A stretch of DNA of 36,248 nucleotides from a virus (Duplodnaviria > Heunggongvirae > Uroviricota > Caudoviricetes): IMG/VR virus record IMGVR_UViG_2778261316_000009. One strand, given 5' to 3'. Position numbers and translations under genes: made by a program. Positions 5,250 to 8,313 of this stretch are shown here, piece by piece (the stretch's first letter is position 1; every line of letters begins with the position of its first letter). The notes under the pieces were generated by a model, which was given only the letters and a program-made list of their open reading frames with translations, had not been told where the DNA came from and did no database searches.

Positions 5250-5782
5250 GCGCATTTGCGTAACTCCGATAACTCGTTAAAACGTTCCATAAACATCCCG
5301 TAGGCATGGCCCGGTGCCAGTGGAATCACGTTGAACATCTCAGTTGCCGGGATACCTTCCAGTACAGGCCAGAAAGAGCCATCATCAAGCCCGAGATCGC
5401 GGCGTTCGGTTGCCAGCATAATGAGATCGGCATATTTCACTGGCGTGCTCATAACAGGAGGTAACCCGTATTTCTCACGTATTACGGCGTCTATTTTTTC
5501 TTCCATCCGTTTATAGTCAGGAAGAAGTCGTTTCAGTGGTGCGGGGATGTCCTGGCAATATGCTTCTGTTGCATCATGCATTAAAGCTTCAAAAGCAAAT
5601 TCCTGTGGCACCAGCTGGCTGCAAAGCACCGCATGTTGGGCGACACTGTAGAAGTGTGAAAGATGTCCTGCAAAGCGACAGATATTTGAAAGGGAAACCG
5701 CGATATCGTTAATAACGATGTCGTCTTTATTTATCCTGTCATAATAAAAATGCTTCCCGGAAAAAGTTTTAATAAATGACAT
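5246..5782 (-). CDS. HD-domain phosphohydrolase
   Basis: His/Asp motifs (HSVAQHA ... HDATEAY); start at MSFIKTF with GGAGAA RBS, the upstream Met at 5809 lacks an RBS. Confidence 0.65.
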   Translation of the reverse strand: MSFIKTFSGKHFYYDRINKDDIVINDIAVSLSNICRFAGHLSHFYSVAQHAVLCSQLVPQEFAFEALMHDATEAYCQDIPAPLKRLLPDYKRMEEKIDAVIREKYGLPPVMSTPVKYADLIMLATERRDLGLDDGSFWPVLEGIPATEMFNVIPLAPGHAYGMFMERFNELSELRKCA

Positions 5783-5825
5783 TTTGTTCTCCACGTATAT
5801 GCGCTGCACCGCGCTGAATTCGGGT

Positions 5826-6166
5826 AAAAGGAAGCCCTCACCGTCCGGCGATTATTGAGTCAATTACATTTCCATAAATGCCCCCGTAGGGGCGGTTAGT
5901 TTCTCCACAAAACAGAGAAGAACACCTGCGGTGGCAGCCGCCCGGATGGATTGGGTTATGAGCCCGTCGTCCGGTGATGCTCTTCTCTGTTTTGTAAAAA
6001 GGACGGTACCAGCCGGAAGCAAGGGTACAAGCTGGTACCGCCAAGACTACACACAGCATAAAGTTGTGGTGCCGGGTGCCTCCCGGTGCCTGGCGAAGGT
6101 TGCACACCAGGCGGGTGGGTATCCACAGAAGGTCGACTATCAGCCTCAACCTTAACCCGCGTGCGC
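5826..6166. other. GC-rich, highly structured non-coding element (candidate ncRNA or miniature palindromic insertion)
   Basis: no credible ORF (overlapping Arg/Pro/Gly-rich frames on both strands); 15-bp perfect inverted repeat 5907-5921 / 5981-5995 plus at least four further hairpins (5880-5893, 6005-6039, 6072-6086, 6088-6112). Confidence 0.35.
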
Positions 6167-6172
6167 TGAGCC

Positions 6173-6262
6173 GCATTCACCACAACGCTAAGGATTCTCT
6201 CTGGTTGAAAATACTTAGCTGTTATGTGCCTGTCTTTTCACCACTTCAGGCTCGGTGGTATC
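6173..6262. repeat. repeat B copy 1 (90 bp), identical to 6828-6917 as read
   Basis: direct comparison of the two stretches in the sequence. Confidence 0.8.
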
Positions 6263-6295
6263 CTTTTAAGCCCGTATACATAAAAGGAAAATCAA

Positions 6296-6541
6296 ATGAC
6301 TTTTGATGAAAAAGAACTTGATAATGCAATTAATAAAATCATCGTAACGTCGCTCTTTTCCTGTCTCAGCGACACTCAGCAGAAACAGTTCTACGAATCG
6401 GCTTTCAACATGATCGAGCGTTGTTGTTTCTGCGATGCCGACGAGTTACCTGAAAAAATCAGGAAACAGTTGGCTGATGCTCTTCGAGTGCGACTTTCTG
6501 ACCAATTTTCTGAAATGTACTCTCCGAATTTGGACAAATAG
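6296..6541 (+). CDS. small hypothetical protein (81 aa), cassette 1 plus-strand gene
   Basis: AAAAGGAAAA RBS 6 nt before the ATG; transcribed opposite to the pL operon. Confidence 0.45.
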   Translation: MTFDEKELDNAINKIIVTSLFSCLSDTQQKQFYESAFNMIERCCFCDADELPEKIRKQLADALRVRLSDQFSEMYSPNLDK

Positions 6542-6734
6542 AAAAAGGCCATTTCCATTCAGGGTCTGATGGAAAGACTTCAGCCTGTTCCAAAGCACGG
6601 TGTAAAGAGAATACAACTCCAGCCATAATCTGATGTTTCCCATTGGTCCAGCTATCGCCGCTCTGATCTACAGGAGCGGCTATGTCGTATGACCAAACGA
6701 CTTCACCACTATTGTTTAAAATCTGGACTTTCAT
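6459..6734 (-). CDS. small hypothetical protein (91 aa), cassette 1 minus-strand gene
   Basis: start MKVQILNN lies inside repeat A; converges on and overlaps the 3' end of the 6296-6541 gene. Confidence 0.4.
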   Translation of the reverse strand: MKVQILNNSGEVVWSYDIAAPVDQSGDSWTNGKHQIMAGVVFSLHRALEQAEVFPSDPEWKWPFSICPNSESTFQKIGQKVALEEHQPTVS

Positions 6735-6827
6735 TTTGTTCTTTAACCTCCAGATACGGGCGTTTAATTGCCCCGCCGAACAGCTCTTTTCCGCAATAGC
6801 TGCAATGTCTTTCGCGCATCAGCCTGC
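6693..6827. repeat. repeat A copy 1 (about 135 bp), second copy at 7321-7455, a few mismatches
   Basis: direct comparison; A copy 1 is contiguous with B copy 2. Confidence 0.8.
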
Positions 6828-6917
6828 GCATTCACCACAACGCTAAGGATTCTCTCTGGTTGAAAATACTTAGCTGTTATGTGCCTGTCTTTTCACCACT
6901 TCAGGCTCGGTGGTATC
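6828..6917. repeat. repeat B copy 2
   Basis: identical to 6173-6262 as read. Confidence 0.8.
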
Positions 6918-6951
6918 TTGGTGTTTTCATATAGCCAAGAAGGAAATAGTT

Positions 6952-7143
6952 ATGACCAAAGAAGAAAAAATTCTTTATTTATTCCAACTATCGGTTAAGA
7001 CTCACACTGCATATCAGACTGCTGCCATGACATCAGATAAAAATTACAGTACGTCAGAAAACCCGATAGACGACATAAGCAAGCTTTACGATAAGTTCGA
7101 AGCACTACTCGATAAAAAGTTTGCTGAGGCTGGGCTTGAGTGA
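6952..7143 (+). CDS. small hypothetical protein (63 aa), cassette 2 plus-strand gene
   Basis: AAGGAAA RBS before the ATG at 6952; the longer ORF from 6910 would start at a GTG inside repeat B. Confidence 0.45.
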   Translation: MTKEEKILYLFQLSVKTHTAYQTAAMTSDKNYSTSENPIDDISKLYDKFEALLDKKFAEAGLE

Positions 7144-7311
7144 TTGTTGAATAATCGACAAAACCCAACTTAAATTTTCGTCAGTGGGCTCGATGCCATG
7201 TGCGGTGAGCTCACTTTTCAAAACTCCAAGCAATTCAGAGCTGATTTTCAATATATCTGCTTGATTTCTAACTATTCCCACTTTTTCCTCCCTTGGTCTA
7301 CGCGCGGTCAT
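7105..7311 (-). CDS. small hypothetical protein, cassette 2 minus-strand gene
   Basis: 68-aa ORF; an internal GTG with GGGAGG RBS near 7282 is an alternative start; converges on the 6952-7143 gene. Confidence 0.35.
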   Translation of the reverse strand: MTARRPREEKVGIVRNQADILKISSELLGVLKSELTAHGIEPTDENLSWVLSIIQQSLKPSLSKLFIE

Positions 7312-7320
7312 GTTTTACGC

Positions 7321-7469
7321 CCAAACGACTTCACAGTTATTGTTTAAAATCTGGACTTTCATTTTGTTCTTTAACCTCCAGATACGGGCGTTTAATGGCC
7401 CCGCCGAACAGCTCTTTTCCGCAATAGCTGCAATGTCTTTCGCGCATCAGCCTGCGCATTCACCACAAC
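7321..7469. repeat. repeat A copy 2; carries a 15-codon truncated MKVQILNNNCEVVWA-stop remnant on the minus strand
   Basis: direct comparison with 6693-6840. Confidence 0.8.
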
Positions 7470-7471
7470 TC

Positions 7472-7509
7472 TAAAAACAAATGTAGGATATCCAACATGT
7501 GAGTGTCAA
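7472..7509 (-). promoter_or_regulatory. candidate pL promoter with embedded operator
   Basis: minus-strand TTGACA (7509-7504), 18-bp spacer, TACATT (7485-7480); 18-bp palindromic operators at 7481-7498 and 7516-7533. Confidence 0.55.
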
Positions 7510-8249: not shown

Positions 8250-8313
8250 GTAGGCAATCCTACCACATGCCCATGTAGGATTCTTGACATTGGTATGTTG
8301 GATATCCTACATT
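8248..8313 (+). promoter_or_regulatory. OR region: operators plus candidate pR, with a pRM-like arrangement abutting the repressor start
   Basis: sites ATGTAGGATTCTTGACAT (8273-8290) and ATGTTGGATATCCTACAT (8295-8312), degenerate site 8248-8268; TTGACA 8284-8289, 18-bp spacer, TACATT 8308-8313. Confidence 0.55.

Follow-up and report, generated by a model that had tools for sequence, protein, structure and literature searches.

A conserved structured RNA element, apparently an STnc100 relative, in the early-left operon of a lambdoid prophage

The DNA analysed here (the window, 36,248 nucleotides [nt] of IMG/VR record IMGVR_UViG_2778261316_000009) is a lambdoid prophage of the SfV/e14/ST64B type. 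Its minus strand carries a LexA-type repressor gene (8249-7596), and just beyond this gene and its terminator lies a promoter-like site, pL, which is flanked by inverted-repeat, operator-like sequences. The hairpin-dense element that is the subject of this work sits 1.3 kb downstream of pL in the leftward operon and is followed directly by a YfbR/HD-type gene (5809-5246), whose Pfam match is just under the cut-off. The original prediction had outlined a GC-rich, non-coding piece of 340 base pairs (bp) at 5826-6166 inside the early-left operon, and this location holds, since the element lies downstream of a promoter-like site adjoining the repressor gene. In each record that was inspected, the element occurs between the repressor/pL and the first early-left gene. 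The identity of this first gene varies, being an HD hydrolase in the window, xis in e14, and other open reading frames (ORFs) in SfV and mEp460.

All the stems that had been listed for this stretch were recovered by inverted-repeat search and minimum-energy folding. The 15-bp inverted repeat 5907-5921/5981-5995 is present and forms the base of a 25-nt inverted repeat (5907-5931/5971-5995), and the minimum-energy fold also contains the stems at 6072-6086, 6088-6112 and 5880-5893. The stem at 6005-6039 is real but longer than the 9 bp first assigned to it, being a perfect 10-bp repeat (6004-6013/6031-6040) that extends to 13 pairs. The GCCA said to follow it belongs to the strand opposite to the RNA; the RNA strand has UUUUU at this place, which makes the hairpin an intrinsic terminator (t1). 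Folding of 5870-6225 (356 nt) on the minus strand gave -157 kcal/mol versus -119 +/- 6 kcal/mol for shuffled sequences (z score, -6.0), with none of 100 shuffles as good; the plus strand gave a z score of -4.9. The structure is thus beyond chance, but the G+C content is raised only mildly, to 0.53-0.59 compared with about 0.45 in the neighbours.

The RNA strand is the minus strand, the same as that of the early-left operon, because the frequent G-U pairs of the closing helix P1 and of the long hairpin would be A-C mismatches on the opposite strand; the pairs 16-74 and 19-71 of the long hairpin are examples. The right edge first drawn at 6166 cuts the main domain, since P1 pairs 6178-6186 with 6063-6071. 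The unit is therefore larger, reaching 6219 at least and probably 6236-6258, and in most relatives the homology continues to about 6258. The parts of the unit and the related features of the locus are collected in Table 1.

Table 1. Features of the element and its surroundings, in 5' to 3' order on the minus strand. R1 is a covariance model, and type 1 a sister form of module A; both are described in the text.
Feature	Position	Strand	Description
pL, promoter-like	7480..7509	minus	TTGACA-18-TACATT; 10/12 matches; hexamers identical to those of the rightward site 8284-8313
Direct repeat D1	6676-6846 = 7304-7474		171 nt
Type-1 5' part	7427..7469	minus	GUUGUGGUG AAU GCGCAGGCUGAUGCGC...; R1 match, 16.4 bits, E 0.04; 1-3 nt past the predicted pL start
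Direct repeat D2	6172-6262 = 6827-6917		91 nt
Second truncated type-1 copy	6799..6841	minus	inside D1; R1 16.4 bits; likewise truncated after 86 nt
Upstream part of conserved unit	6220..6262	minus	within D2; hairpin 6259-6240 plus AAGACAGGCACAUAACA (6236-6220)
P0 hairpin	6187..6219	minus	GCUAAG-U-AUUUUC...GAGAAU-C-CUUAGC; immediately 5' of module A; z -4.8
Module A	6063..6186	minus	multi-branched, 124 nt; R1 82.1 bits, E 1e-18; inside the STnc100 match
P1, closing helix of module A	6186-6178 with 6071-6063	minus	GUUGUGGUG/CACCACAAC
Invariant AAU	6177-6175	minus	module A, after the P1 5' strand
Hairpin A	6174-6159	minus	module A; bulged
Three internal hairpins	6153-6129, 6126-6115, 6112-6088	minus	module A; from the fold
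Hairpin B	6086-6072	minus	module A; CCGGGAGGCACCCGG
Linker	6044..6062	minus	UUUAUGCUGUGUGUAGUCU, 19 nt; joins module A to t1; candidate seed/Hfq-contact region, or 3' strand of an outer helix
Intrinsic terminator t1	5996..6042	minus	13-pair G+C-rich stem 6042-6030/6014-6002, 15-nt loop, UUUUU 6000-5996; -23 kcal/mol, z -4.5
Long hairpin	5907..5995	minus	89 nt; 20-pair outer stem with two small arms; -47.5 kcal/mol, z -7.1
Tip of one long-hairpin arm	5953..5966	minus	CGGGCUCAUAACCC; 14-nt identity with the initiator-tRNA anticodon arm
Small hairpin	5880..5893	minus	GCCCC-UACG-GGGGC; 14 nt beyond the long hairpin, before the first downstream gene; -12 kcal/mol, z -2.6

Several of these parts are kept among relatives as structures rather than as fixed sequences. 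The site of P0 holds a helix of other sequence (AAGAGCAUU/AGUGCUCUU or AAGGGCAUUU/AAGUGUCCUU) and also larger inserts. The t1 stem changes from GGUACC/GGUACC to GGUGCC/GGCACC in two relatives (L349 and L381), which is a compensatory change, and in Salmonella ST64B the t1 position holds an entirely different stem; U5 always comes next, followed by ACAAAAC, the first bases of the long hairpin. The ST64B relative also retains GCUGUGUG.AGUCUU of the linker. The site of the small hairpin is occupied by a hairpin of other sequence, CGACCUUGCAGGGUCG, or GGCGGUGGCAACCCGCC in ST64B, and on the RNA strand of the window no U-tract follows 5893-5880.

At its curated gathering thresholds, Rfam gave no match anywhere in the window. 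With reporting by expect value (E), STnc100 (RF02076) matched 5993-6216 on the minus strand with 44.4 bits (E 3e-8) over model positions 1-206 of 206, which corresponds to module A with t1, end to end. The element had at first been placed in no family; the search supplies a near-threshold relative that stays below the curated cut-off. Further relatives were gathered from viral contigs by three short motifs, and a regular-expression module detector, which gave mostly false positives, was dropped. The relatives have a common layout: a 9-bp closing helix of near-any sequence, AAU and hairpin A come first, then a hypervariable middle whose length ranges from about 12 to >200 nt, and finally hairpin B beside the 3' strand. 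Three forms were distinguished: canonical STnc100, with a CCCCC...GGGG hairpin A; type 2, the form found in the window; and type 1. Loci with the CCCCC-type hairpin A and the shared core are bona fide Rfam STnc100 (72 and 53 bits in L012), and loci that Rfam itself calls STnc100, such as L012, are included in the ungapped core alignment with 59 relatives.

The window element is, like STnc100, EcOnc27/sRNA103 of Escherichia coli O157:H7, and PasD1 and PasD2 of enteropathogenic E. coli (EPEC), borne by a prophage of enterobacteria. As in STnc100, its closing helix ends in ...GGUG, the AAU is invariant, the bulged hairpin A has a ..GCG. loop, the arms are variable, and hairpin B (CACCGGGAGGCACCCGG) abuts the 3' strand of P1. 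A linker and an intrinsic terminator come next, also as in STnc100, with the 13-pair stem and U5 placed 20 nt after P1. Unlike the canonical form, the window copy has a hairpin A of the GCGGCUCAGCGCACGC rather than the CCCCCUGUGCGGAGGGG type and three internal hairpins. It lies beside the repressor in the early-left operon, whereas canonical units occur in the late region, close to Q, stx or the lysis genes; it lacks a convincing promoter of its own and carries P0 in front and a conserved long hairpin behind. Judged from its sequence, the element is a variant of the STnc100-related prophage RNAs with an unusual operon position and extra modules, which has been annotated as a protein. Canonical STnc100 units were also seen in tandem with a spacing of about 253 nt (L287:4380-5460; also L238 and L253), each consisting of an A/T-rich promoter-like stretch, a structured domain, an A/U-rich linker and its own terminator.

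A comparative search for compensatory base changes had been proposed as a check of the prediction, and such changes were found. In 60 type-2 and STnc100 cores, both sides change at 9/9 pairs of P1, as in GGCAUGGUG/CACCAUGCA and AAUGCAGUG/CACUGCAUU. The covariation score observed was reached by 0 of 500 shuffles, and slid controls fell to 34-46% paired. RNAalifold, applied to a natural-length alignment of 37 sequences, agreed with this result: it predicted P1 and both hairpins, A and B, without guidance, and nine pairs were compensatory; three CG-to-GC swaps occur in hairpin A. Our own covariance model, R1, built from 37 relatives, scored the window copy with 82 bits, ST64B with 76 and e14 with 64, and intact type-1 copies (L005 and L004) with 25.6 bits (E 2e-4). 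The long hairpin is 94% conserved among 33 distinct relatives, with 96% of cells paired and three pairs that change on both sides; since the sequence diversity is low, this covariation support is modest.

Type 1 is built like the type 2 of the window, with P1, AAU, a hairpin, a variable region and a second hairpin, and often has identical first 15 nt (GUUGUGGUGAAUGCG). The two type-1 hairpins, GCGCAGGCUGAUGCGC and GCCGGAGAUCAGCACCGGC, have complementary loops (GCUGAU/AUCAGC). Covariation was observed at 9/9 pairs of P1 and 4/4 pairs of hairpin A, and the loop-loop pairing is invariant save for a matching deletion in both loops of L084, so that covariation gives no proof of it. Rfam returned no match to type 1 at any threshold tried, the intact copy included. 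Intact copies are located at L005:3674-3808 (Lys8385Vzw) and L004:3674-3808. In Lys8385Vzw, mEp460 and Stx2c phages, type 1 is the different upstream domain that precedes the same block of t1 and long hairpin (5882-6044) as in the window. In several phages, including Lys8385Vzw, type 1 begins at the predicted pL transcription start, and the RNA there would therefore be the first product of the leftward promoter. The pL-proximal copy in the window equals the intact Lys8385Vzw module over 86 nt, continuing to the left of the R1 match, and is interrupted by a ymfJ-like ORF.

The block duplicated by the direct repeats D1 and D2 comprises the type-1 5' half, one ymfJ-like ORF on the minus strand, one small ORF on the plus strand, and P0. 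The ymfJ-like ORF occupies 6459-6734, with a truncated copy at about 7360-7316, and the small plus-strand ORFs occupy 6296-6541 and 6910-7143. D2 ends exactly at the 15-mer GTTGTGGTGAATGCG, which is common to type 1 and type 2, and from this shared junction it seems that small genes are inserted and copied by recombination between RNA modules. On the plus strand, at 6240-6259 inside D2, a terminator-like hairpin ACCACTTCAGGCTCGGTGGT followed by ATCCTTTTAA lies just upstream of the small plus-strand ORFs. Other RNAs of phage early regions were encountered among the records, with isrK and C4 antisense RNA (P1-type immunity RNA) at 5850-6035 of Lys8385Vzw (L005) and in a viral contig (L102:285-488); neither isrK nor C4 antisense RNA had a match in the window.

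Identity to the element amounts to 96-99% in several E. coli phages and in the Shigella phages SfII, SfV and SfIV, and to about 78% in Salmonella ST64B; Stx2c phages have it as well. Part of it was found in 2,788 of 5,426 complete E. coli genomes, about half, with a median of one and a maximum of five places in each genome. This host range was taken from phage and E. coli collections; a 15-mer scan of genome contigs gave mostly chance matches in unrelated phyla. In the annotations inspected, these copies figure as a hypothetical protein, as YmfH or not at all. The original prediction had left three options for the nature of the element. A miniature inverted-repeat insertion or REP-like repetitive element does not fit the small number of places per genome and the same prophage position in the inspected records, and an RNA partner for a neighbouring protein finds no support, as the downstream gene varies between relatives and no protein is consistently linked. 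The third option, a structured non-coding RNA, is the correct one, the element being non-coding, structured and conserved. The observation behind the prediction is confirmed, and its interpretation is partly supported.

The absence of a credible ORF, also part of the prediction, is upheld by the homologues. An ORF of 112 amino acids is open at 5838-6176, but it has no Pfam match, and overlapping ORFs are open on both strands of the element. In a comparison of 34 distinct homologues, the frame that stays open longest differed, being frame 2 in the window type, 1 in e14 and 0 in ST64B. The e14 counterpart in E. coli K-12 is nonetheless annotated as ymfH (RefSeq 'protein YmfH'), and many others as 'hypothetical protein'. 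The ymfH gene of e14 (L001:2981-3292) spans the terminator and the long hairpin, and module A is found there at L001:3173-3295.

We consider it on balance probable that the element encodes a small RNA of the STnc100/PasD kind, roughly 190-240 nt long, that ends at t1 and also attenuates the early-left operon. The small-RNA reading is favoured because the window shares its domain-linker-terminator layout with studied relatives that associate with Hfq. PasD1 and PasD2 were detected by Northern blotting, are stabilised by Hfq and have targets identified by RNA interaction by ligation and sequencing (RIL-seq) (PMC8550237), and their relationship with STnc100 has been proposed in a preprint (10.64898/2026.05.13.724894). 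EcOnc27/sRNA103 overlaps STnc100 downstream of stx2B and binds Hfq (PMC12711010). From these relatives we infer that the upstream half of the window element, comprising the multi-branched domain, the linker and t1, would be expressed as a small-RNA unit. Transcripts would start at pL or at a weak promoter within the upstream repeat and stop at t1, and the resulting RNA may act on its targets as an Hfq-associated base-pairing regulator stabilised by the structured domain.

Since t1 sits inside the operon, it would attenuate early-left transcription and limit its passage into the downstream genes (xis-int in e14; HD hydrolase and others in the window). In read-through transcripts the second half, consisting of the long hairpin, whose tip resembles initiator transfer RNA (tRNA), and the small hairpin, would form a structured 5' leader, which by analogy only is a plausible site of RNase III action or translation control. 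In the window, the pL-proximal type-1 copy is broken after 86 nt, and the intact type-2 unit is found downstream of it.

A number of observations weigh against this reading. The STnc100 score of 44.4 bits lies below the curated cut-off of 47. The 5' partner of P1 was found via a complementary 9-mer before AAT, and the pairing percentage of P1 is thus partly by construction; chance partners were estimated at about 3% per instance, and the hairpin that follows the AAU gives independent support. The most conserved parts of the element are helices and loops, not a single-stranded seed, and no complementary target site for the linker was found in the window apart from the linker itself. The linker is unpaired when 5870-6225 is folded; in the predicted minimum-energy fold of 5990-6265, AAGACAGGCACAUAACA (6236-6220) pairs with its UGCUGUGUGUAGUCUU part (6057-6044), and this outer helix may enclose P0 and module A, which would hide the putative seed. 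The t1 hairpin has five U only, and a U5 tract is short for a typical Hfq-dependent small RNA. The promoter search gave no promoter-like match directly upstream of the window element. The promoter of its operon, pL, is 1.3 kb away and is repressed in lysogens, whereas the studied relatives are located in the late region with their own promoters. A short U5, a possibly paired linker and no clear promoter of its own are all atypical for the family. The only hint of a promoter comes from e14, where a weak start site before ymfH was recorded in a single replicate of one condition (PMC12132413).

It is possible, though rather unlikely, that the element is a purely cis-acting leader, in which the domain, t1 and the long hairpin set early-left read-through by attenuation, processive antitermination or RNase III processing and the short RNA is functionless. 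This would agree with the constant position of the element after pL and before the first gene, and with the joint occurrence of t1 and the long hairpin, which always comes after t1 among relatives and accompanies it even below a type-1 instead of a type-2 domain. Moreover, the early-left genes can be expressed only via read-through of t1. A long near-perfect stem is a typical substrate of RNase III, and the lambda N leader has one. In many relatives, a CAUAAC/CACAAC-like stretch upstream of P0 can pair with the 5' strand of P1 as an alternative to P1, sometimes with covariation; GUUGUG can pair either with such a stretch or with the 3' strand of P1, and some relatives keep both options. An alternative pairing able to disrupt t1 was, however, not found. 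Elsewhere, members of the family occur as self-contained units that have terminators of their own, and accumulation as small RNAs has been seen for related RNAs, which argues that the domain does not abolish termination.

The known leaders that come closest are putL and putR of phage HK022, which are also structured RNAs placed just downstream of an early promoter with terminators to pass (PMC9378689). The put elements differ in being about 70 nt long, with two stem-loops, and in following both pL and pR. The window element has no resemblance to put, and R1 found no plus-strand copy of it after pR in the window; the pL/putL sequence was read, a motif search brought up nothing related, an R1 search of L006 gave nothing below E 3, and membership was rejected. 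A lambda-type nut site would have a boxA, a boxB hairpin and a downstream gene for an N-like protein. A boxA-like GUGCUCUUU upstream of many relatives is the 3' strand of a covarying helix. The window copy lacks this stretch, the first gene after the element is not a conserved one, and no formal nut search was made. The upstream GUGCUCUUUCC of relatives, considered as a boxA, pairs with AAGAGCAUU and covaries, and is treated here as a helix strand instead. DicF (RF00039) of the Qin prophage likewise belongs to a leftward prophage early operon, and t1 resembles its 3' hairpin (UUGGCGGUACCAG versus UUGGCGGUAUCAG), but the 5' pairing region of DicF is absent here; the Rfam score of 19.4 bits against a cut-off of 48 was confined to the terminator hairpin, and DicF was rejected.

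The tip of the long hairpin raises the question of a relationship with tRNA. The sequence CGGGCUCAUAACCC is identical at 14/14 nt to E. coli K-12 metZ, annotated as initiator tRNA-Met (CAU), covering three G-C pairs and the CUCAUAA loop. The element could accordingly be a tRNA-derived mimic that is handled by tRNA enzymes such as RNase P, or that serves as decoy or trigger for tRNA-sensing host systems, for which VapC-type nucleases cleaving initiator tRNA and retron-linked toxins may be candidates; we regard this as improbable. Besides the metZ identity, the layout of module A is cloverleaf-like: P1 stacked on hairpin B recalls the acceptor/T arm, AAU recalls positions 8-9, and the 4-bp/8-nt hairpin A recalls the D arm. 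The complementary loops of type 1 also count in favour. Pieces resembling the anticodon stem-loop or the T arm recur in equivalent domains elsewhere among phages, and some tRNA clusters of phages contain copies, several in all. Finally, the 'ymfH' clone of e14, which was reported to trigger RcaT, the toxin of retron-Sen2 (preprint 10.1101/2020.06.22.160242), holds nearly the whole RNA, so that the triggering might be due to the RNA rather than to a protein.

The retron result was, however, attributed to a protein and not dissected. In contrast to the initiator tRNAs metZ/W/V, the anticodon-like arm here tops a 20-bp stem with no cloverleaf. The loop of this arm has changed in e14 and ST64B, and covariation gives no proof of the loop-loop pairing in type 1. 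ARAGORN called no tRNA or transfer-messenger RNA (tmRNA) gene in the window, the Rfam tRNA model gave no match at E up to 10 in 5600-6400, and a conserved NCCA after P1, as in the 3' end of a tRNA, was sought in relatives and not found. The motif GGGNUCAUAACCCRAYC was noted upstream of related modules in five records (L012, L035, L048, L095 and L015), and some equivalent phage domains hold T-arm-like GGUUCGAnUCC pieces, none of which was called a tRNA.

A broader idea, which we put forward as doubtful, is that the core common to types 1, 2 and STnc100, together with the hairpin tipped by an anticodon arm, represents tRNA-derived scaffolds, widely used by enterobacterial temperate phages, that present the hypervariable insert, with the tip as decoy or trigger for host systems that sense or target tRNA. 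If this were true, the scaffold would be excised or stabilised by tRNA-processing enzymes, and the insert would be a short RNA segment or, as in the window, whole gene cassettes. The triggering of RcaT by the ymfH clone would then be an RNA effect and type 1 a new RNA class.

It is very improbable that the element acts as DNA, whether as a hot spot of recombination, as a palindrome or cruciform that binds protein, or as a 'linker' at a mosaic boundary that has no role as RNA. D1 and D2 duplicate cassettes, the D2 junction is the 15-mer of the type-1 and type-2 modules, and the variable middle of the modules holds unrelated inserts, genes included. Recombination at the modules is nevertheless compatible with an RNA function, the terminator and its U-tract are found on one strand only, and covariation keeps the RNA pairing rather than the sequence. 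The G-U pairs tie the helices to one strand, which makes it unlikely that a DNA-level role explains the element alone. Hardly credible at all is a protein-coding YmfH-like gene of about 100-120 amino acids, as in RefSeq and phage records: in its favour are the 112-residue ORF of the window and the RefSeq name of the e14 counterpart, but no one frame is conserved among the homologues, the start codons lie within invariant RNA motifs (AUG from the AAU plus G here; GUG in P1 in e14), the substitutions compensate for helices, the ORFs overlap on both strands and Pfam gives no match.

On the small-RNA reading, the STnc100/PasD/EcOnc27 family, known from the late region, would also be represented on the immediate-early leftward transcript, and a small RNA produced there at the very onset of induction or infection could target messages of the host or of rival phages. 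Reading the element as RNA would take one K-12 y-gene off the list of proteins and add a testable prophage RNA. The covariation data define the core of the family as a closing helix of any sequence, an invariant AAU, two fixed hairpins and a hypervariable middle, and reveal type 1, a sister form for which Rfam has no family. The modules also appear to mark joints where small gene cassettes entered or were duplicated, which bears on how 'morons' enter phage operons.

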